A stretch of 24,000 nucleotides of DNA from Promethearchaeota archaeon (lineage in GTDB: Archaea; Asgardarchaeota; Lokiarchaeia; Sigyniarchaeales; Sigyniarchaeaceae): the NCBI GenBank assembly GCA_041305945.1, contig JBGLND010000001.1, forward strand, positions 1,427,753-1,451,752, written 5' to 3'. Positions 3,848 through 17,100 of the stretch are shown piece after piece. Made by a program: the position numbers and the translations under genes. Position 1 is the first letter of the stretch, and every line of letters starts with the position of its first letter. Under the pieces are notes generated by a model. It worked only from the letters and a program-made list of their open reading frames with translations, made no database searches and was not told the origin of the DNA.

Positions 3848-6799
3848 TCAGCTCACGACCGGCAGCACGATGCAAGACGGGTACATGCCCCCCGTGAGCA
3901 CGGAATTGTTCGCCACGTTGAAACTCGACGGGTGGTTCGTGAACGCGCCCGAGTGGTTGGGATGGCGCTCGAACCGCGGGTAATTGCTCGACGAGATCGC
4001 GATCGTGATGCGATGTCCCGTGTTGAACTGGTACGCGGTCGACCACAAGTCCACCGATATCTCGTAGGCTTGCCCACCAATCATGTCTGGTGCGGTGATG
4101 TTATAACCATCCCGCGAACGCATCACGAGGATGCCATCCAGGATGTTATAGCAGCTGCCGTTCTGGTACCGGTCCATGAGCATCACGGTGAATGCCGTGT
4201 CGGTGCAGTTGGACGCGACCCAGAGGCTCGCCCGGACGTTGCCCACCACCGACAGCGGGAATGGCAGGGGGGCCGATTCGAACACGAGCACGTCGCTTCT
4301 TGCCAAGTTCCTGGCAGCGGCTTGGTCGTACGGGCCCGTGCCGACAAACTGCTCAACGCGATCGGGATGTTTGTCACCGTCCCAGTTGTTGAACCCGAGT
4401 GCATCGAGCTCCAAGGAGGCATAATCCGCCATCAGGTTATTACCACCCTTCGTGAGCACCGGGTAGCGGGGATCGTACAAGCATGACACGTTCGCGTTCC
4501 CGGCAGGGTTGCTATCGATCAGCGAACCGTTGGACGCGACGTACAACACCCGCGTCGAGTCGTTGGCCGGCCACCCGCTCGCGTAGTACCACTTGTTGGC
4601 ACCCGTGACGGATGAGGGCTGGTTCACGTCGCCCATCAAGTAATAGGCAACGCACGGTTCGGACCAGTTGACCGGGGTGCCGGCCAATGCCGCCGATCGC
4701 ATCTCGTTCTCCCACCCCGCGTGACGGCTCTCATCGGCGCGGGGGAAGGCAAGGGACGTTGCGTTGAAAACCGGGGTTAACACGCCAAACTTTCCGTGCC
4801 CGTACGGCCCCATGACCAGACGCTGCTTCCCCAGCGCGCCTGGCCCGCCGTGGTAGTTATACCCGATGAACCCGTCGATCGTGCCTTGCGAGCAGATGTC
4901 GTACCAGCCGCCGAAATGGATTGCGCTCACGTTCACCGACGCGTACCTGTGCCCCATGGACAGGGACGTGGTGTTCCACGACGCGTCCTTTACTTGGTGG
5001 GACACGATCCAGTCGATGGCATCCGAGTACTCGGTTGCACGGCCTGGCGAGTTGTCCTTCCAGATGGTATAGACCCACGACTCGAGCATAGCTTTCCTGA
5101 AGGCGCCGCCTTGGAAGATCATGTGGTCGTAGAGCTCCGGCGCCCCGACACTCAGGGTTTGGAATTTCAGCGCGCCGGATGGCTCATCCGCGTAGCAATA
5201 CTGGTTGACCGTGCCGGCAGACGCGCCTGTCGAAGCAATGTTCCCGTTACACCAGGATTGATTCTTGATCCACGCCACGGTCTTTGCACCGTCGAACCGG
5301 TCATCGATGAACGGGATGAACTTGCCTTCGGACTGGTACCGACCCCGCATGTCCTGGTACACAACGGCGTATCCCGCCTTGACCAAGTCGAGGACCCCCT
5401 TGTTGGTAGCAAGGTTTCCCTTGTTGTAGGGCGTCCGCAGCAAGATGACGGGTCTCGGGATCGTATCGCCCCGCTGCCGGTAAACATCGGTCGCGAGCAA
5501 GGTGCCATCATCCATGGCGAGGTATTCAGTCTTGTAATCAACGGCGACGTACGCGTCGACCATCATATACCCGATGAAGGGAGCAAGGACGATCGTAGTT
5601 ACCATGGCGGCCTTCAAGGCAATCGGGACCTTGTCCGCAAGTTCATGCTTTGCTTGCCTGAGCACCGCCTCGATTGTACGGGAGACTCGACCCCGGGAAC
5701 GGAGCCTTGCTCCAATGGCATACCGTGCGGAGAACACGGCGATCAAGAGCGAGATGATGACAATATACTGAGGGGCATTCTTGTCAGTCCCCGTGATGGT
5801 CATGTACGATGTTGCAGCAAGGGCCAGGAAGGGAATCGCGTACTTGAAAAACCCGCCGGTGATGGTACCGATGACCACCACGCCCTTGAAATTGCTCCGC
5901 TTTGACGTTGCGATCAGGTGGGACCCGCCGTTGATGAGTGAATATCCCACCACGGCAATGGCAAGAACGAGATGAAGCATGCCAATACCCGCGAAGATCG
6001 CTTCCTTGCCAGCGAACCATGCCCAGTCTTTACCATTATTTCGCCATTCTTCACTTGCTTGACCGGAATCAAGCGATTTTTTGCGATTGAACGTGAAATA
6101 ATTCACCAAGTAACTGGTAACAAAGACGATACGACCAACAATTGCAAGAGCAAGATAGACGTCCCGGCCCGCGACCATGTTCGGTTTCACGAGCCCCCGG
6201 TCGAACAAGACCACCAAGGGCACCTTGAACCCGGCACGATCGAGCGCCTCGTCAACGATACCCTTCAAGGGAACGGGCTTGCCCGCCCTGTGCCCCGCGT
6301 CCGCGCAGACGAGTACCTTCGGTTTCGCGTCGTCGATGCGGATGGCCAACGATTCGGTGCTGAAGCCCGCGAACACGATGCTGTGGATGGCGCCGATGCG
6401 GACGCACGCCAGGGCGGCGATGCATGCCTCGGGAATCATGGGCAGGTAGATGATGACCCTGTCGCCTTTATTCACGCCCGAATTCTTCAAGACGCTGGCA
6501 AACTCGACGACCCTTTTTAATAGTTGCCCATAGGTTATGATTTCCTCCTTGTTGACCTCGGAGCTCACCCATATGTATGCAGGTTGGTCTTTCTTTTCTG
6601 CTTCGACCCACCTGTCTACCGCGTTGTAGCAGGTGTTGGTGATGCCACCCACGAACCATTTATAAAATGGTGGTTTCGATGCATCCAATATTCGATCTGG
6701 TTTCTTGTACCAGAAGATTTTTTCAACGACCGGCTTCCAATATTCTTCCGGTTTCTCCACTGAAAGCTTGTGAGCGACTTGATATTTCGACATGGACAT
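3848..6799 (-). CDS. chimeric protein: acyl-CoA synthetase (PrpE/Acs-like) N-terminal fragment + ~5 TM helices + CocE/NonD (S15 X-Pro dipeptidyl-peptidase-like) hydrolase
   Basis: Residues ~37-250 of the tracked ORF (6158-6799) resemble the first ~250 aa of propionyl/acetyl-CoA synthetases (PPFYKWFVGGITNTCYNAVDRW, GDRVIIYLPMIPEA, RIGAIHSIVFAGFS, RIDDAKPKVLV, GRDV), but the YTSGTTGKPKG P-loop is absent. A hydrophobic block occupies 5558-6157. The hydrolase occupies 3851-5557 (ILLRTPYNKG, VVYQDMRGRYQSEG, GxSxG as GASAG). The ORF track extends to a GTG at 6907; ATG 6799 (MSMSKYQ) fits the family N-terminus. Confidence 0.7.
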   Translation of the reverse strand: MSMSKYQVAHKLSVEKPEEYWKPVVEKIFWYKKPDRILDASKPPFYKWFVGGITNTCYNAVDRWVEAEKKDQPAYIWVSSEVNKEEIITYGQLLKRVVEFASVLKNSGVNKGDRVIIYLPMIPEACIAALACVRIGAIHSIVFAGFSTESLAIRIDDAKPKVLVCADAGHRAGKPVPLKGIVDEALDRAGFKVPLVVLFDRGLVKPNMVAGRDVYLALAIVGRIVFVTSYLVNYFTFNRKKSLDSGQASEEWRNNGKDWAWFAGKEAIFAGIGMLHLVLAIAVVGYSLINGGSHLIATSKRSNFKGVVVIGTITGGFFKYAIPFLALAATSYMTITGTDKNAPQYIVIISLLIAVFSARYAIGARLRSRGRVSRTIEAVLRQAKHELADKVPIALKAAMVTTIVLAPFIGYMMVDAYVAVDYKTEYLAMDDGTLLATDVYRQRGDTIPRPVILLRTPYNKGNLATNKGVLDLVKAGYAVVYQDMRGRYQSEGKFIPFIDDRFDGAKTVAWIKNQSWCNGNIASTGASAGTVNQYCYADEPSGALKFQTLSVGAPELYDHMIFQGGAFRKAMLESWVYTIWKDNSPGRATEYSDAIDWIVSHQVKDASWNTTSLSMGHRYASVNVSAIHFGGWYDICSQGTIDGFIGYNYHGGPGALGKQRLVMGPYGHGKFGVLTPVFNATSLAFPRADESRHAGWENEMRSAALAGTPVNWSEPCVAYYLMGDVNQPSSVTGANKWYYASGWPANDSTRVLYVASNGSLIDSNPAGNANVSCLYDPRYPVLTKGGNNLMADYASLELDALGFNNWDGDKHPDRVEQFVGTGPYDQAAARNLARSDVLVFESAPLPFPLSVVGNVRASLWVASNCTDTAFTVMLMDRYQNGSCYNILDGILVMRSRDGYNITAPDMIGGQAYEISVDLWSTAYQFNTGHRITIAISSSNYPRFERHPNHSGAFTNHPSSFNVANNSVLTGGMYPSCIVLPVVS

Positions 6800-6968
6800 C
6801 CTCGCTTTGCTGATGCAAGATTGATGGGTTATTCTGGTGATGCTCGCACGGGCGGCTGACCTCCCGTGCATGGCATAGCCTTGCTTGAAATATCTTGTTC
6901 TATTCACTTATAATAGTACACATGTTAACGCACCATGGTTAGTAGATATTTGATGGAGTTACACGGCG

Positions 6969-8640: not shown

Positions 8641-8880
8641 TCATCCTTGCTTTTTATCCTGATCCGATTGGAACAACTTGAACTCCCCCTTGATCTTCGA
8701 CCGCTCTTTCTTGTCGGCCGAGACTTTTTCGAACGAGAGGATGACCGGCGCGTCGCCCTGCAAGGCCGCGTTGATGAAATTGATGAAACCGATTTGCTGG
8801 GTCGGGGGAATGTTAATCTTGAGCTCTATGGGCTTGCGCTGCTTCGGGCTTGTCGTGGATAACACGAGTTTGATTCTCAT
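8641..8880 (-). CDS. hypothetical 79-aa protein; strand-strand-helix-strand-strand pattern (possible beta-grasp), ends in Gly
   Basis: ATG-initiated ORF (8878-8880) downstream of the gelsolin-TM gene on the same strand. Sequence is MRIKLVLS..KPIELKINIPPTQQIGFINFINAALQG..APVILSFEK..GEFKLFQSDQDKKQG. There is no GG terminus and no motif I can name. Confidence 0.4.
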   Translation of the reverse strand: MRIKLVLSTTSPKQRKPIELKINIPPTQQIGFINFINAALQGDAPVILSFEKVSADKKERSKIKGEFKLFQSDQDKKQG

Positions 8881-9054: not shown

Positions 9055-9786
9055 TTATTCTTGCGCGATGCGCACGAACTCTGCTACAACACCCAACGTG
9101 AACGGCACGAACGCGACAAGCTCCATGAGTAAAATCAACAACTGGAACACGTCAAGCATCCCGACCCCTGTCAAATCTGGTCGCCAGTTGTTGATGTAGA
9201 GAATGGTAAGAACGCCCACGCCGAGCCCTACAGCCAAGGTAATGACCATGTACGTGCGCTTGGACAGTGCCGAGAAGAGCGCCGCGACGCCGAACGCGAT
9301 CATGCCGAATGCCGTCATCCACGTGAGGGTTTCCAGCCAGCAGTTATTTGCGCTTGAACCACCCAGCATCCCCGCGAAGATGCACTCGTAAGAGTTTGCC
9401 TGGTATGTTGCCAAGTCCATGCTGTATAGCGTGTAAATGATGAAGACAGCCAAGCCGACGCCAGCAAGCCCGGCAACCATGCCTGCAATCGCGAATATCC
9501 GGGTCTTCCCCTGCCCGAGCGGCGAGCCGAGCAACCGCTTGATTTCTTGCTGCAATTCCGGTGCCGGGTTCCTTCCCACCTTCTGGAATTGGAAGCTAGA
9601 ATAGCGATCTCGCAATGAAAGCAAGAGTTTCTTTGCTTCATTCTGATCCTTGATTTTTGATTTCGGGCCATGCCAAATATAAATTACACGTCCTTCCGTG
9701 TCGACAAGCAGCGCGACATCACGCACGCTCAAACGAGGGGACTCTATCCATTTCCCAGCCCTGAACACGTAAGCGAATACTCTCAT
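9055..9786 (-). CDS. gelsolin-like domain protein with four C-terminal transmembrane helices
   Basis: The N-terminal ~90 aa show gelsolin-repeat landmarks: DVALLVDTEGRVIYIWHGPKSKIKDQNEAKKL...FQKVGRNPAPEL (compare gelsolin G4 IIYNWQGAQST...VVQGKEPAHL). Four hydrophobic helices follow: IFAIAGMVAGLAGVGLAVFIIY, WMTAFGMIAFGVAALFSAL, YMVITLAVGLGVGVLTILYI and LLILLMELVAFVPFTLGVV. The ORF track starts at TTG 9813; the first ATG is 9786 (MRVFAYVF). Confidence 0.7.
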   Translation of the reverse strand: MRVFAYVFRAGKWIESPRLSVRDVALLVDTEGRVIYIWHGPKSKIKDQNEAKKLLLSLRDRYSSFQFQKVGRNPAPELQQEIKRLLGSPLGQGKTRIFAIAGMVAGLAGVGLAVFIIYTLYSMDLATYQANSYECIFAGMLGGSSANNCWLETLTWMTAFGMIAFGVAALFSALSKRTYMVITLAVGLGVGVLTILYINNWRPDLTGVGMLDVFQLLILLMELVAFVPFTLGVVAEFVRIAQE

Positions 9787-10286
9787 GTTGTTAACCTTCT
9801 CGTCATTCTTCAACTTTCTTGCAAGGGCGTGGAAGCATTCCCGGGCGTCTCGATGAATCGTGAAGATAATTGCCTCGTGGAAAACCTTGCAAGTCTTCGT
9901 ACTATGTCTAATTTTTGGCTAATGAGCTTTAAATATTTTTCAAAAAAAAAAACCCTACCCTCAAACCACATTTGTCCGGTAAAATAGTTATTCCCTCTCT
10001 CACCTTTCACGCTGATTTTTAAAATAGGACTATCCAGCGGTGTTTCAAGCAAACAACACCATCATGGTCGAGCTGCGTGATTGGCACGATCATGATCTGG
10101 AATTTCGGGTCGTTTCAACCATTATTTTATTCCAGCATCGTGGCGTCGTGCATGTTAGTGTCGTCGAGGTGGAGGACCTCCAGCCCCGACAAGCCTTCGA
10201 GGAACACGCCGAGGTGGTTGAAATAGTTGCCCGATAACGGGAGCTATTTTTTTTTGTAAGCGTCTATTCTATTCATTAGAAGAATA

Positions 10287-10376
10287 TTGAAATGCCTTGA
10301 AATGCCAAAAATGTTGCTGAAATGCCCAGAAATGCTATAGATTTTACTGAAATGACAAAAGTGTTGTGAAAATGCC
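10287..10376 (+). repeat. 10-bp-phased array of YTGAAATGCC units (6 strong, 3 degenerate) overlapping the E2 promoter and start
   Basis: Units start at 10287 ttgaaatgcc, 10297 ttgaaatgcc, 10307 aaaaatgttg, 10317 ctgaaatgcc, 10327 cagaaatgct, 10337 atagatttta, 10347 ctgaaatgac, 10357 aaaagtgttg and 10367 tgaaaatgcc. The last unit contains the E2 ATG (10372). Unit 6 (TATAGATTTTA) is TATA-like. Confidence 0.8.
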
Positions 10377-10866
10377 GTCCCTCCCACTCCCCATCTGGCA
10401 AGAACGAGTCAAGAACGAGCTCGATGTGCTTCGTAATATGAATGCATTGGTCGAGAGTTCGGTTCAAGATTTTGGCGAAACGATACAATTTCTTATCAAC
10501 GTGCGTGCGAAAGGCTTGGTGAAAGATACGAGCAACAAGCTGGTCCCCATGATGGATCACCAGATCCAGATCGAGATCAACCGGGACTTCCCGTATCCCG
10601 GTGGCATCAAGTTCCTTTGGCGTTCACCTATTTTCCACCCGAATATCGACCCGTACGAGACAGGTTACATTTGCCTCAACGTGCTCAAGAAATGGTCGCA
10701 GCTGAGCGACTTGAGCACCACGGTCAAGGCCCTGACAATGTTGATAACGCACCCGAACCCCGAGGATCCCTTGAACTATCCCACGTGCTTGGAAGCGGCC
10801 AAGTATTTCTTCGAGAACCCGCCATCGGAAGAATCGAACGACGATGACATCCTCGTCATCGATTAA
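10372..10866 (+). CDS. ubiquitin-conjugating enzyme E2 (UBC fold) homologue
   Basis: Landmarks are RVKNELDVL (helix 1), FPYPGGIKFLWRSPIFHPNID with HPN at 10636-10644, catalytic Cys in TGYICLNVL (TGC 10672-10674), KKW and HPNPEDPLN. The ORF track starts at GTG 10366; ATG is at 10372. Confidence 0.85.
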   Translation: MPSLPLPIWQERVKNELDVLRNMNALVESSVQDFGETIQFLINVRAKGLVKDTSNKLVPMMDHQIQIEINRDFPYPGGIKFLWRSPIFHPNIDPYETGYICLNVLKKWSQLSDLSTTVKALTMLITHPNPEDPLNYPTCLEAAKYFFENPPSEESNDDDILVID

Positions 10867-10888
10867 CATTCGTTCGTGTTATATTTCC

Positions 10889-10896
10889 TTTTTTTT
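10889..10896 (+). terminator. oligo-T tract (T8) 22 nt after the E2 stop
   Basis: CCTTTTTTTTCAC read directly; archaeal-type oligo-T termination signal. Confidence 0.45.
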
Positions 10897-11107
10897 CACG
10901 TTCCCTCGCTTGGCACACTGGATAAGCGGCATCTCGTGACGCTCGACCCACGATCGTACCGCATCGAGCTCCCGAGTCGTCGTAGGCGTGTAGATATTTA
11001 TTAATGCTTGTAGCGCAAGAATTTCTTAATATACGCTTGAATTACAACCAACGATTATGGCATTGAACATTGTTGGAATACACCACGAGAAACGAGCATG
11101 AGGCATC

Positions 11108-12376
11108 ATGGGAACGTTCGTAGCATATGTCCTGATGGGCGAGGAAGACTTCGTACCCACCAATAAATTAGAAGAGGATCAAGTCGCGTTCATCATTGAC
11201 ATGGAAAAGAAGATCATCTATGCTTGGCACGGGCGCAATTCGAGCAAGCTCCAGCAATACAAGTGCGGGACCAACGCCACGAAATTGAAGTCGAAGCTGC
11301 ACTACTATGGCTTCGGCACGGAGATTATCAAGCAAGGTGGCGAGCCTGCCGAGGTGGCCGTGGAGGTCGAGGAGTTGCTCGCAGGGAAGGGCGAGATACC
11401 GTCCAAGATAAAGGAGACGATCACCGAGGAAGCAATCAAGACGGGCAAGATCGCTGCACCATCATCCGTCGCGGTGCAACCGGAACCAGAGGAACACGTG
11501 GTGCGGCCATCATCTCGAGCAGAACCCCCGCAACCAAGCAGCCTCAAGCCATCCCTTGCCGAAATCGCACGCGTCGAGGCAGAACGCCGGGCCACGATGA
11601 CCACGGAATTGAAACGAGCCGAAGACCTTGCACGGGTCAAGGAAGACAATGAACGACGTGCAAGGGGCGAGGCCCGCGAGAAAGAAGCCGAGGCCTTGTT
11701 GCTGAAACGCAAGCTGGATGAAGAAACGCGGTTCTTGGAAGCTGAATCACGGAAGACCGAGCAGCTCGAGGAAAAATTGAAACAGGAATCGCTCGAGCGC
11801 CATCGCCTCCAGAAATTGATGGAGAAAGAACGGGAGGACATGCGCAAGGAGTACGAGACCCGCATACAGGACGAGATCAAGGCGCGCGTTGACGAGGAAC
11901 AAAAGAAAACCTTGGAATTGCAAGAAGAACTCGATCGCGTGAAGAAAGAACGGGACGATGCCATCAAGTCAAAGGAGCGGGAGATCGAAGAGACCAAGAA
12001 GGACATCGAGACCCTCATGATGGACAAGGACCAGCAGCTCAAGGAACAGATCGATAAGGAGCGGCAAGAGCTGGCGTTGGCCAAGGATGAAGAGAAGGAA
12101 GCCATCAAGGCTCGATATGCCAAGGAAAAGTCGGAGCTCGAATCAAAGGTTAGCGACGAGCAGAAGTCGTTGGAGGCAAAGCTCGAGCAAGAACGCCAGA
12201 TGCGACTGTCCTTGCTCGACCAGGCCTCCCGCGCAGCGCAAGAAGCGGTCGAGCGCGAGGAAAAGGTTCGCGAGGAGGTCGAGAGCAGCGTCCGTGCAGA
12301 GATGGATGCAAAGCTTGCCGCCGAGCACGTTGAAAAGGAACGCCTCGAGAAACGGCGATGTGCGGCCCGCGCATGA
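11108..12376 (+). CDS. gelsolin-like domain protein with Pro/Ser linker and ~260-aa E/K/R-rich coiled coil
   Basis: The N-terminal ~95 aa read DQVAFIIDMEKKIIYAWHGRNSSKLQQYKCGTNATKL...EIIKQGGEPAEV (gelsolin-repeat pattern, paralogous to 9055-9786). The linker is APSSVAVQPEPEE..PPQPSSLKPS. From ~11555 to ~12352 there is an uninterrupted charged heptad-like sequence (EAERRATMTTELKRAEDLARVKEDNERRARGE...EKERLEK). Confidence 0.7.
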   Translation: MGTFVAYVLMGEEDFVPTNKLEEDQVAFIIDMEKKIIYAWHGRNSSKLQQYKCGTNATKLKSKLHYYGFGTEIIKQGGEPAEVAVEVEELLAGKGEIPSKIKETITEEAIKTGKIAAPSSVAVQPEPEEHVVRPSSRAEPPQPSSLKPSLAEIARVEAERRATMTTELKRAEDLARVKEDNERRARGEAREKEAEALLLKRKLDEETRFLEAESRKTEQLEEKLKQESLERHRLQKLMEKEREDMRKEYETRIQDEIKARVDEEQKKTLELQEELDRVKKERDDAIKSKEREIEETKKDIETLMMDKDQQLKEQIDKERQELALAKDEEKEAIKARYAKEKSELESKVSDEQKSLEAKLEQERQMRLSLLDQASRAAQEAVEREEKVREEVESSVRAEMDAKLAAEHVEKERLEKRRCAARA

Positions 12377-12695
12377 ACCCGCGGTGCGCGGCGATGTTCC
12401 GCAGTTTCAAGATGATGTCGGTGCTAGGCACGTCGCGCGGGCATCGTTCTTGGCACGTGAAGCACGTGGAGCACAGCCACAGCAAGTCAGAATTCAAGAG
12501 CTCGTCATCGAGCCCGATCATGGCCTCGCGGATGAGTTCGCGTGTCCGCATTGCCGTGCGACGCCCGCTGGGGCAGCCGCCCGAGCACGTGCCGCATTGA
12601 TAACATGACTTGAACCGTTCATACATCTCGTCTTCGACGATTTCTTCCACGAGTCTTCTATCAATTTTCTTGATGATTTGTGGGTTTAATGCCAT
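12150..12695 (-). CDS. hdrC: HdrC-like 4Fe-4S dicluster protein with aberrant (non-homologous) C-terminal third
   Basis: Two cluster motifs, CYQCGTCSGGCPSGRRT and LWLCSTCFTCQERCPR, then LRNIAAHRGFM..PH, all typical of heterodisulfide reductase subunit C. After about residue 119 (~12348) the ORF is an R/P/A-rich tail lying wholly antisense to the coiled-coil CDS. ATG at 12695 (GTG at 12704 in the track). Confidence 0.6.
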   Translation of the reverse strand: MALNPQIIKKIDRRLVEEIVEDEMYERFKSCYQCGTCSGGCPSGRRTAMRTRELIREAMIGLDDELLNSDLLWLCSTCFTCQERCPRDVPSTDIILKLRNIAAHRGFMRGPHIAVSRGVPFQRARRQALHPSLHGRCSRPPREPFPRARPLLALRGRPGRARTVASGVLARALPPTTSARR

Positions 12696-12755
12696 GAGAT
12701 TCACTCTTTTTTTTATCTTAACGTGTTACGTGCTGTTCCTTTCTTGGTATCATTA

Positions 12756-14870: not shown

Positions 14871-15944
14871 TCATTCGTTTCTTTCATGCAAGGCTGGAAG
14901 AAATGAGAATGCGTTCGTGAACGACGCGTCCAGCGCTTGTTTGATGTTTCTATCCCCCGCGGGTGCTTGCTTGGACAAGATGGCATCCGTCGATCTGGAG
15001 AACATCACGAATGCCTTGTCCATCAAGTTGTCCTGGTTTTTGAATGCCATATATATGCTTGCGACCGTGGTTTGTTTGACCAGCACCGTGATGTCGTCGA
15101 ACACGATCTTCTGCACCTTCAAGGCACGTTCATGTCCCGCATTCGGGCTGGAGCCAATGCCATCCAGCGCCCGCTGCACGCGCTCTTCCAAGCCACCGGT
15201 CCTGTCCGAGCCGGGGAACGTCCGCCGGTACAACATGTTCTTGCCTGTGTCCCTCACTTCCACCATCAATAGCAGCGACGGCGACATGAACAGCGCGGCA
15301 GGGAACCGGGCGACGATGGCCGCCTCCGTTGCGAACATGATGAACGGCGGGATGATGACCGCGTAGGTTGGTAGCAACTGCGCGATGGTCAAGGGATACA
15401 GGACCAAGATCAATATAACGCTCACCACGATGAGCGCTGGGAACACCAGGAAAGCGGGTTCCAGGCGCTCGCCCCGCACGCGCCGCACGGTGGTCGTGAT
15501 GTACTCACGCTGGACGGCGAGCAGCAGCACGAGCATGCCGAACATACCAACGCGCTCCAGCGGCGAGAACACGACCGTGTGGTCGGTGAACGATGCCGGT
15601 TCGAGGAACACGGATACCACCGTGACGGTCACAAGCGTCATGCTTGCCACGATCACGTATTTATTGCGTCCTTTCAGCGGGCCAACCAGCATCGTGAAAA
15701 ACTTGATGGCAAAATGGAACCCGCAAGACACGAACACCACGCCGATGAGCGCCGCCTCCGGGTTCGAGAACAGCCGTCCCAGGTAAAAAAAAATGCCATA
15801 CATGCCGATGCAAATGTTTCCAAGGGCGCACGGGAACACCGGGGGGTACCCCTTCCTCGATAGCCTCGCGAGCAAGACAAACCCCGATAGGAACGGCGGC
15901 AAGCTACCCGCGAGCCACAAGACCGTCTCTGCTGCTGTCACCAT
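14871..15944 (-). CDS. uncharacterised 7-TM membrane protein with ~135-aa C-terminal soluble domain (paralog A)
   Basis: Seven hydrophobic segments followed by a soluble tail ending AFSFLPALHERNE. Colinear with paralog B, sharing W-L-x-G-x-LPP, VFLEPAxFT, PLERV, FLVFPxLI, VYPLxIAxxLPTY, FPAAxFxSPS, LVEVR, VFxDITVL and AFSFLPALH. ATG 15944 aligns the N-termini (the track starts at TTG 15956). Confidence 0.75.
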   Translation of the reverse strand: MVTAAETVLWLAGSLPPFLSGFVLLARLSRKGYPPVFPCALGNICIGMYGIFFYLGRLFSNPEAALIGVVFVSCGFHFAIKFFTMLVGPLKGRNKYVIVASMTLVTVTVVSVFLEPASFTDHTVVFSPLERVGMFGMLVLLLAVQREYITTTVRRVRGERLEPAFLVFPALIVVSVILILVLYPLTIAQLLPTYAVIIPPFIMFATEAAIVARFPAALFMSPSLLLMVEVRDTGKNMLYRRTFPGSDRTGGLEERVQRALDGIGSSPNAGHERALKVQKIVFDDITVLVKQTTVASIYMAFKNQDNLMDKAFVMFSRSTDAILSKQAPAGDRNIKQALDASFTNAFSFLPALHERNE

Positions 15945-15982
15945 GCGAACCCACAACTCCGCGCGTGACTAGCGACGGGGCC

Positions 15983-16026: not shown

Positions 16027-17100
16027 TCACGGGTCACGCTTGTGCAACGCGGGAAGGAACGAGAAGGCGTCCACGAAGCAGCGGTTGAGCCCGGTCTCGA
16101 TGGTCGCAGTGTCCTTTCCATTGTTATTCGAGAAAAAAACGTTCACGGAATCATTGAAGTTGCGAAACGTGGTTTCAAGGAGCTCGTCCGGGCGATCGAT
16201 GAGCATGAAGGCGACGTTCCCGTCATGGTGATCGAAGAGAACGGTGATGTCTTGGAACACGAGTTTCTTCAACACGGTCTCCTTCCCGCTACCACCTTTC
16301 ATCCTCGCCATGACCTCGTTCACCATCGAAACCACCGGCTCGAGCGAATCGTCCTGTGGCTGGCCGCGGGCAAGCGCCCGTTGGAATAGCGTCGTGCCCC
16401 CCGGCCCCCGCACCTCGACGAGCAACGGCACGGACGGGCTCAAGAACATCGCCGCGGGAAACGTCGCCACCAGCATCGTCTCGGCGGTGAACGCGAACCA
16501 CGGCGGCACGATCACGACGTACGTGGGCAAGGCGCCCGCGATGCTCAGCGGGTAGACGACGAGGATCATGGCGAAGCCGGTCGTGATCAGCACGGGAAAC
16601 ACAAGGAACTTCGCGCTCAAGGACTCGCGGTGCACGCGCTGGATGGTGTGCACCATGAAGTCGAGCTGTATGAACAAGGAACATGCAAGCAACGAGAGCA
16701 TGCACACGCGTTCGAGCGGCGCGAACAATATCGTCGCCTCCGTGAATGTAGCGGGCTCGAGAAACACGTCCACGAGCATGATGATTCCCAGGATGCCGAC
16801 AACGCGTGCCAGCACGCGGGGATACTTTCTCGTGCTCCCGAACATTTGCTCGAAAAACGTGCACGCGAAGTAAAATCCAATCGCAAGCGAGAACAAGCCA
16901 AGGAAAATCAATTCCGTGTTCGACATCAACCGGGCAAAGAAATAGAACACGCCAAACATACCGACGAAGATGTCCCCCGCCGCGCACGACGTCACGGGCG
17001 GGAAGCCCCTCTTCCGGTACTTCAAGAGCAAGCACAAACCCGCCGTGATGGGGGGCAAACCACCCAGTAGCCACGTCGCAAGCTCGAATGTAGATGCCAT
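16027..17100 (-). CDS. uncharacterised 7-TM membrane protein with ~135-aa C-terminal soluble domain (paralog B)
   Basis: 357-aa ATG ORF with the same architecture and conserved blocks as paralog A (identity not computed; many conserved blocks by eye). Ends AFSFLPALHKRDP. Confidence 0.75.
   Translation of the reverse strand: MASTFELATWLLGGLPPITAGLCLLLKYRKRGFPPVTSCAAGDIFVGMFGVFYFFARLMSNTELIFLGLFSLAIGFYFACTFFEQMFGSTRKYPRVLARVVGILGIIMLVDVFLEPATFTEATILFAPLERVCMLSLLACSLFIQLDFMVHTIQRVHRESLSAKFLVFPVLITTGFAMILVVYPLSIAGALPTYVVIVPPWFAFTAETMLVATFPAAMFLSPSVPLLVEVRGPGGTTLFQRALARGQPQDDSLEPVVSMVNEVMARMKGGSGKETVLKKLVFQDITVLFDHHDGNVAFMLIDRPDELLETTFRNFNDSVNVFFSNNNGKDTATIETGLNRCFVDAFSFLPALHKRDP

Follow-up and report, generated by a model that had tools for sequence, protein, structure and literature searches.

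An apparently competent ubiquitin-conjugating enzyme encoded apart from the ancestral Asgard ubiquitin-like gene cluster

What becomes of a ubiquitin-conjugating enzyme (E2) whose gene has none of its usual partners nearby? The question is raised by a 24,000-nt stretch of contig JBGLND010000001.1 (assembly GCA_041305945.1, Promethearchaeota archaeon), hereafter called the window, in which an E2 coding sequence occupies positions 10372..10866 of the + strand. An initial annotation had described this gene as an orphan, with an intact active site and no activating enzyme (E1), ligase (E3) or deubiquitinase gene in 24 kb, and had proposed that the product either works with distal partners or has been recruited to a different neighbourhood and function. 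From the results below, we consider it likely that the E2 is a competent UBC-fold enzyme of the Asgard ubiquitin-like protein (Ubl) system, working with partners encoded in trans.

The E2 gene encodes 164 amino acids plus a stop, in a frame showing no frameshift. The product matches the Pfam model PF00179 (UQ_con) with 55.3 bits (E 6.8e-15) and thereby passes the gathering threshold of 27; when it was compared by phmmer to the sequences in PDB, the matches were exclusively E2 enzymes (best E 7e-10). Alignment to solved E2s (4gpr, UBE2C, PEX4) places the HPN motif (H89-P90-N91; 10636..10644, + strand) on their HPN and Cys101, within the sequence GYICLNVL (10672..10674, + strand), on their catalytic cysteine, with two extra residues separating HPN from Cys101. 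The initial annotation had put both elements at exactly these coordinates; it had also singled out profile placement in the UBC family and structural equivalence of the Cys and HPN as the points on which its call of a canonical E2 would stand or fall, and on both the call is borne out. In 4gpr, an E2 from Entamoeba, the residue aligned to Tyr75 is the YPF-motif Phe, a position presumably equivalent to the RING-contacting Phe62 of UbcH5. The ATG at 10372 is favoured as the start codon since the N-terminus MP(S/E)LP is kept in 31 homologues. A GTG at 10366, proposed by a mechanical list of open reading frames (ORFs), finds no support in this conserved N-terminus. Searches with PADLOC and NCBIfam gave no match for the E2. 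An AlphaFold2 model (32-homologue input) has a mean pLDDT of 84, with residues 154-164 disordered (pLDDT <50). Compared by Foldseek to PDB, the model retrieved E2s in all top 50 positions (TM-scores 0.42-0.59; best E 4e-5 to 1e-3), and the structure so predicted has the UBC alpha/beta fold.

Comparison with eukaryotic single-domain E2s (UBE2D/UbcH5, UBE2L3/UbcH7, UBE2N/Ubc13, UBE2C and Pex4) leads to the same placement. All belong to PF00179 and share the predicted fold, and the HPN, catalytic Cys, Trp and PNPxDPL motif of the window E2 stand at aligned positions. Identity, however, is 19-27% with no single subfamily favoured, and the N-terminal half is divergent. The window E2 has the sequence FPYPGG where eukaryotic enzymes have the YPFKPP loop, which in UbcH5 we take to be its counterpart; it further differs in the two-residue insertion between HPN and Cys, in a shorter C-terminal helical region and in a DDDILVID tail.

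Relatives of the enzyme were collected in a listing of 54 sequences, and 31 homologues were aligned with the window E2. All listed homologues with a named organism are Asgard, except one from a metagenome-assembled genome (MAG) deposited as "Bathyarchaeota", whose E2 groups with the Sigynarchaeota clade. One group of homologues (163-178 aa, including "Candidatus Sigynarchaeota") is 68-90% identical to the window E2, and a second (approximately 185 aa, labelled Promethearchaeota or Lokiarchaeota) is 47-59% identical. HPN and Cys101 are unchanged in 32 of the 32 aligned family members; together with W108 and PNP they are among 30 invariant columns. Sequence identity of 68-90% among members of the Sigynarchaeota clade, whose loci range from 45 to 57% GC, combined with these invariant columns, points to purifying selection on the E2 within the clade. 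Altogether, the protein appears to be a genuine and apparently catalytically competent member of the UBC family. It is an ordinary member of a known enzyme family rather than a new kind, close relatives being already named "ubiquitin-conjugating enzyme E2" by NCBI.

These data bear directly on the idea that the gene is a non-catalytic, UEV-like or decaying remnant left after loss of the system. Its isolation from E1, Ubl and JAB genes would fit such a history, as would its being shorter than Loki-type orthologues, from which it differs by lacking an 11-14 aa loop insertion and a longer C-terminal linker. Yet HPN, Cys101 and 28 other columns are invariant, the frame is uninterrupted, and the partner genes described below are intact; moreover, an E2 that still adjoins JAB and ThiF genes (P0016) also lacks the loop insertion. 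With Cys101 present and invariant, the protein does not classify as a UEV, and we regard decay as very improbable.

The lack of partners within the window was confirmed in three ways: Pfam scans of 30 window ORFs detected no E1, JAB, RING or Ubl; tblastn of the 24 kb gave no match to ThiF, JAB or RING proteins of Asgard archaea or to human ubiquitin; and hidden Markov models (HMMs) of the families built from Asgard loci, run on every window ORF of 40 aa or more, found no E1, JAB, RING or Ubl. The domains that Pfam did find are all of the housekeeping kind: beta-CASP metallo-beta-lactamase, purine/uridine phosphorylase superfamily, phosphoribosyltransferase, peptidase M54, GCD14/TrmI-family methyltransferase, CDP-alcohol phosphatidyltransferase, amidohydrolase, FAD oxidoreductase, PfkB kinase and MFS transporter. 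On this point the initial annotation thus stands.

To characterize the usual setting of the family, species-representative genomes were scanned with the E2 alignment, ORFs were called in the resulting 80 loci and HMMs were built iteratively. Among these, 57 Asgard loci labelled Promethearchaeota, Hermod-, Hod- or Thorarchaeota lie outside the Sigynarchaeota clade, and they share a tight arrangement. A ThiF-type E1 gene (approximately 293 aa) ends no more than 200 bp upstream of the E2 on the same strand in 56 of the 57; a JAB gene is found directly upstream of the E1 in 54 and a longin/GTPase-like gene farther upstream in 47. A convergent gene for an approximately 85-aa Ubl ending in ...VIGG (plus 0-4 residues) lies within 300 bp downstream of the E2 in 53, and in 31 the opposite strand carries, within 5 kb, one or more RING genes whose products have a hydrophobic N-terminal segment. 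JAB, ThiF and RING assignments were confirmed by Pfam. The Ubl was recognised by reading the canonical cluster loci; human ubiquitin used as a seed matched no ORF in any locus. A profile of the 85-aa protein matches single ubiquitin over its full length in PDB (E 4e-6 to 7e-5) and, as judged from these matches, the protein is a true ubiquitin homologue. The E1 consists almost wholly of the ThiF domain (Pfam 33-287 of 292) and therefore has no room for a ubiquitin-fold domain. Conservation in the cluster is uneven: across Asgard lineages the Ubl is approximately 72-87% and the E1 66-78% identical, both better kept than the E2, for which identity between the window protein and the low-GC Asgard group is just 47-59%.

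The window E2 belongs to the same orthologous group as the cluster-encoded E2s of the loci labelled Promethearchaeota, Hermod-, Hod- and Thorarchaeota, at 47-59% identity over 89-100% of the length. Common to them are the N-terminus MPxLPxxIW, the FPYPGG loop and the C-terminal tail; the window protein differs in lying physically outside the cluster, besides its missing loop insertion and longer linker. Distant E2s from Micrarchaeota, Thermoplasmata and bacteria likewise occur in linkage to, or as fusions with, Ubl, JAB and E1, and linkage is therefore the ancestral state.

Ubiquitin-like operons of Asgard archaea and Aigarchaeota have been described before. The cascade of Caldiarchaeum subterraneum, comprising a ThiF-type E1, an E2-like protein, a RING protein, Rpn11/JAMM and a GG-ended pro-ubiquitin, has been reconstituted in vitro (PMC5654768), and in the same work E1-like enzymes were reported to carry a C-terminal ubiquitin-like domain. 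A Helarchaeial E1/E2/RING cascade has been reconstituted as well (bioRxiv 10.1101/2023.07.25.550441). Variable clustering of ubiquitin genes across Asgard phyla was analysed earlier (PMC9192718), and the study describing Sigynarchaeota reported E1 and E2 genes from its newly assembled MAGs (bioRxiv 10.1101/2021.04.02.438162). The window E2 is an archaeal E2 of the same type of system as that of Caldiarchaeum, the comparison drawn in the initial annotation. This comparison was apt, yet incomplete in that the family normally resides in the Asgard JAB-E1-E2/Ubl/RING cluster. Furthermore, whereas Caldiarchaeum has one compact operon with a small soluble RING E3, here the E2 is detached from the cluster, the N-terminal segment of the RING protein encoded nearby in relatives is hydrophobic and looks membrane-spanning, and the E1, approximately 295 aa long, is filled nearly completely by its ThiF domain.

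The outgroup data could also be taken to suggest an E2 of mobile anti-phage defence, belonging to a Bil-type or CBASS Cap2-type system, since in the distant bacterial relatives (L076-L087) the E2 is either fused to E1 and JAB or encoded next to them, and ThiF and JAB give weak PADLOC matches to Cap2- and JAB-type models. The E2 itself, however, has no PADLOC match and fits the eukaryote-type UQ_con model; outside the Sigynarchaeota clade it was found in 57 species-representative loci of Asgard archaea, and its conserved synteny is with housekeeping genes (GCD14/TrmI-family tRNA methyltransferase and CDP-alcohol phosphatidyltransferase, and in relatives glutamine-amidotransferase/SIS and thiolase genes). 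An anti-phage origin seems to us exceedingly improbable.

A different picture emerges in the Sigynarchaeota clade, represented by eight loci: the window, L001-L005, L008 ("Ca. Sigynarchaeum springense") and L009. In all eight the E2 is set between two gelsolin-domain genes, and HMM searches of up to 10 kb around it detected no gene for ThiF, JAB, Ubl or the GTPase-like protein. Intermediate arrangements exist. In L088 one HEAT-like gene is found between ThiF and E2, and in L006 there are six; L089 and L090 show the same GTPase-like–JAB–ThiF trio followed by inserted genes. The orphan appearance of the E2 reflects a lineage-specific break-up of the operon.

The Sigynarchaeota E1 was reached by way of codon usage. 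All 120 matches listed for a low-GC Asgard ThiF query were of the low-GC type, and those least AT-biased in amino-acid composition pointed to no loci other than L006-like ones. The motif GxGATGNE..K.L, written as a DNA pattern with G or C forced at third codon positions to fit the codon usage of the organism, was found in locus L092 (52% GC), where GTPase-like, JAB and ThiF genes occur with no E2 downstream. The ThiF of this locus led in turn to "ThiF family adenylyltransferase" proteins of Candidatus Sigynarchaeota archaeon and Candidatus Sigynarchaeum springense, and to GF325_09260, which comes from the same MAG as the E2 GF325_18375. Significantly, assembly GCA_041305845.1 encodes an E2 identical to that of the window on contig JBFYKP010000179.1 (locus L001) and, on a separate contig, JBFYKP010000137.1, GTPase-like (293 aa), JAB (198 aa) and ThiF (299 aa; P0182) genes in a row. 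The trio also occurs in other Sigynarchaeota MAGs; the longin/GTPase-like gene, a constant member of the cluster, has thus remained with JAB and E1. The E1 motifs GxGATGNE, SNLNRC, two CxxC and SCTG are intact, and JAB keeps the JAMM motif HSHPx7SxxD. That a MAG with an identical E2 carries intact partners on another contig favours the first of the two options offered by the initial annotation, namely distal partners; recruitment to a different function finds no support beyond the neighbourhood itself.

At 1.1-1.3 kb downstream of Sigynarchaeota ThiF, locus L094 has two tandem genes for Cys-rich proteins of 67-70 aa (11974-12186 and 12239-12442; RING HMM E approximately 1e-11), and similar genes are seen in L095. 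By their sequences these proteins may be small RING-finger E3s.

The second option deserves closer consideration, as both genes flanking the E2 start with a gelsolin domain. The first, GelA (9055..9786, - strand), was identified from orthologues and from profile comparison to PDB; the second, GelB (11108..12351, ORF to 12376, + strand), is cut after approximately 415 aa. Recruitment of the E2 to a cytoskeleton-linked role together with these genes, independent of the ancestral E1, JAB and Ubl, would agree with the GelA–E2–GelB arrangement being kept in 8 of 8 loci of the clade and with the approximately 90% identity of the GelA domain across it. Conservation in a single clade, however, is explained by shared ancestry. 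A methyltransferase gene lies between E2 and GelB in L004, and GelA is inverted in the window. No gelsolin gene occurs near the E2 in the 57 other Asgard loci, the E2 retains all family hallmarks including the tail motif, and E1 and JAB genes are intact in the MAG with the identical E2. These considerations make the cytoskeletal role unlikely.

One candidate partner lies nearer than the window would suggest. In L001, L002 and L004, a protein of 400-460 aa, hydrophobic in its N-terminal segment and with a RING-H2 at its C-terminus, is encoded on the opposite strand downstream of the E2, at 9.5, 8 and 7.5 kb, respectively. The ligand spacing in L001 was read as C-x2-C-x12-C-x3-H-x2-H-x2-C-x10-C-x2-C, and the L004 protein scores 29.8 bits with Pfam zf-RING_2 against a cut-off of 27.3. 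Hence the word "orphan" is correct for the window, which is free of partners, and overstated for the gene, given this RING-H2 gene 7.5-9.5 kb downstream in the sibling MAG and relatives. The RING gene is missing from the window because the latter departs from the sibling contig at position 12351. As determined by blastn and base-level comparison, a sharp breakpoint at 12351..12352 separates a left part 99.96% identical to JBFYKP010000179.1 from an unrelated right part; window positions 9968-12351 differ from L001 1-2384 at a single position, and window position 9968 is exactly where the sibling contig ends. The breakpoint cuts the 3' parts of GelB (from 1059 to approximately 415 aa) and of a ferredoxin-type (Fer4 dicluster) ORF of 184 aa (12150-12704, - strand; Fer4 domains only in the N-terminal 92 aa). 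The 5' parts of the two genes face each other, as from an inversion junction or a misjoin. Beyond 12351 the synteny of relatives agrees with L001 and not with the window, and the right 11.6 kb are not the ancestral neighbourhood. The breakpoint is either a real rearrangement or an assembly error, neither being favoured.

It could be argued that the orphan status is for the most part artefactual, arising from misassembly or rearrangement of the contig. The sharp discordance at 12351/12352 with two genes cut, the inversion of GelA relative to all relatives, the end of the sibling contig at 9968 and the loss from the window of a RING gene present in L001 speak in favour. But this accounts for the missing RING gene only. 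E1, JAB and Ubl are absent within up to 10 kb in the seven other clade loci, which are independent assemblies, and in the sibling MAG E1 and JAB are on a different contig. The E2, moreover, is listed on a 3.7-Mb contig, so that the rearrangement could be real. We consider an artefact as the main cause rather unlikely.

We thus return to an enzyme acting with partners encoded in trans. By homology with the reconstituted archaeal cascades, the JAB/JAMM protease would trim a pro-ubiquitin-like protein to its C-terminal GG, and the small ThiF-type E1 (approximately 295 aa, no ubiquitin-fold domain) would adenylate the Ubl, form a thioester with it and hand it on to Cys101 of the E2. The membrane-anchored RING-H2 protein would then act as E3, promoting transfer of the Ubl to substrate lysines, and JAB would reverse the modification. 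Break-up of the cluster in the Sigynarchaeota clade would have left the E2 in loose linkage with the RING gene, at a distance of 7.5-9.5 kb, and would have put the GTPase-like–JAB–E1 trio at a separate locus. It is this separate position of the trio that leads us to place the partners of the E2 in trans.

Family membership, active-site conservation and the predicted fold were computed directly, as were the ancestral cluster and the separate position of the E1/JAB locus in the sibling MAG. Several observations nevertheless weigh against the proposed scheme. The UQ_con alignment spans only residues 63-136 of the E2, the N-terminal half being divergent, and the TM-scores of the model to E2 structures are moderate (0.5-0.6). 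The main gap is the Ubl, no gene for which was found in any Sigynarchaeota locus examined. The E1, JAB and RING partners were seen in the 99.96%-identical sibling MAG and in relatives, not on the window's own contig; a link from an E1 to the 3.7-Mb contig given for the E2 was sought in the member tables of the sequence clusters and not found. It is from conserved proximity that we infer the pairing of E2 and RING-H2 protein, and homology is likewise the basis on which thioester chemistry is assigned to Cys101.

A peculiarity of the E2 is its C-terminal end. The peptide D157-D164 (DDDILVID; 10840..10863, + strand) has the properties of a short linear motif, being conserved in homologues and disordered in the model. 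The acidic tail pointed out in the initial annotation proved to be a conserved motif: 30 of 31 homologues terminate in DDI[LI][VI]I[DE]D-like residues preceded by an acidic run. When 1118 called genes of Asgard loci were searched with a C-terminal regular expression for this tail, 55 matched, 50 of them E2s and five paralogues of the GTPase-like protein of the cluster, and no other gene family carried the motif. DDDIIIYVD-type ends resembling the E2 tail are seen on extra longin/GTPase-like paralogues in L019 (5335-6285), L024 (5260-6231), L030 (5224-6171) and L035 (1613-2569 and 5885-6172). E2s with peptide tails and peptide-based E1–E2 docking are familiar from the acidic tail of Cdc34/UBE2R, Atg3–Atg7, UFC1–UBA5 and SUMO-interacting motifs (SIMs), and non-canonical E1s devoid of a ubiquitin-fold domain recruit E2s via short peptides. 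The partner E1 considered here likewise lacks this domain and, like SIM-type peptides that dock as a beta-strand, the window E2 tail is a disordered acidic run with 3-5 hydrophobic residues; it has no sequence homology to Cdc34/UBE2R, Atg3 or UFC1-type tails. The tail is proposed as an E1 or Ubl docking peptide. Tentatively, it might let the E2 and some GTPase-like proteins bind the same partner, either the ThiF E1 or, in a SIM-like manner, the Ubl.

Turning to the neighbourhood, the order found in relatives is GCD14/TrmI-family methyltransferase, CDP-alcohol phosphatidyltransferase, a 79-aa protein, GelA, E2 and GelB, continuing in L001, L002/L003 and L004 with glutamine-amidotransferase/SIS and thiolase domain genes. 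GelA combines an N-terminal gelsolin domain with a hydrophobic C-terminal half, probably membrane-spanning as read from its sequence. Its ORF reaches 9813, and homologues begin at MRVFAY. Orthologues in L002, L004, L008 and L009 are on the same strand as the E2, and the window orientation is inverted relative to 6 of 6 related loci covering GelA; a search for flanking inverted repeats revealed none convincing, the best pair being 15 nt with 80% complementarity. GelB, identified by Pfam, profile and comparison with L001, consists of a gelsolin domain and a coiled coil. The Pfam Gelsolin match of GelB is below threshold (E 0.0017), whereas a joint GelA and GelB profile matches CapG (4e-13), villin (2e-11), gelsolin (3e-9) and the archaeal gelsolin-like structures 7c2f (4e-5) and 7whg (1e-4) in PDB. 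Intact GelB (1059 aa in the sibling MAG, L001 1141-4320; also L002 10640-12751 and L004 11357-13996) combines the gelsolin domain with a Glu/Lys-rich coiled coil of approximately 600 aa, with proline-rich repeats in which the unit DDLVFDIGGPS recurs and with a C-terminus that is polybasic (LDFVNLD...KKGKKKKK), a layout resembling that of an actin regulator.

The conserved 79-aa protein (8641..8880, - strand) adjoins GelA and E2 syntenically, with homologues in L002, L004, L008 and L009. The family has the invariant pattern SPK...P..LK...P...GF and always adjoins GelA; in L004 (7867-8376) and L009 (1294-1830) the protein is tandemly duplicated within one ORF. It has no match in Pfam, NCBIfam or PDB. 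It was considered as a hidden Ubl and rejected, as hhalign against the Ubl profile gave 0.3% probability and the protein lacks a GG end.

A repeat search uncovered approximately nine TTGAAATGCC-like units, phased at 10 nt, at 10287..10376 (+ strand), reaching the E2 start codon. Each unit carries an ATG or a GTG. No such array precedes the E2 in L002, L004, L008, L009, L088, L006, L063 and L011, the last having a single GAAATG in its place, and the feature is specific to the window lineage. It could be a binding array, a set of decoy starts or a product of slippage.

Elsewhere in the window, a 1019-aa ORF (3848-6907, - strand) has an acetyl-CoA-synthetase N-terminus joined to a hydrophobic stretch and to an S15 peptidase (PepX) that is complete. 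Its AMP-binding domain covers only the first 100 of 384 profile positions, which suggests a further breakpoint at approximately 6.1-6.3 kb or an odd fusion. Two tandem hydrophobic paralogues of 361 and 357 aa (14871-15956 and 16027-17100, both - strand) end in ...DAFSFLPALH.R.. and have no Pfam match. The last gene of the window, open-ended, resembles a sugar aminotransferase when inspected by eye.

In itself the E2 gene adds little, as Asgard E2s are known, close relatives carry E2 annotations and E1/E2/RING cascades of archaea have already been reconstituted. Modest new leads are provided by the tail motif and by the stepwise decay of the operon. The shared tail provides a concrete hypothesis for how an E2 is recruited by a minimal E1 devoid of a ubiquitin-fold domain; if true, it would represent an early peptide-based route of E2 recruitment and would explain how the enzyme functions after its gene left the operon. 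The dismantling can be followed within one Asgard clade, from tight linkage of E1 and E2 in 56 of 57 loci, to one intervening gene in L088, to six in L006, to full separation. The series constitutes a small natural model of the passage from an operonic to a dispersed, eukaryote-like organisation.

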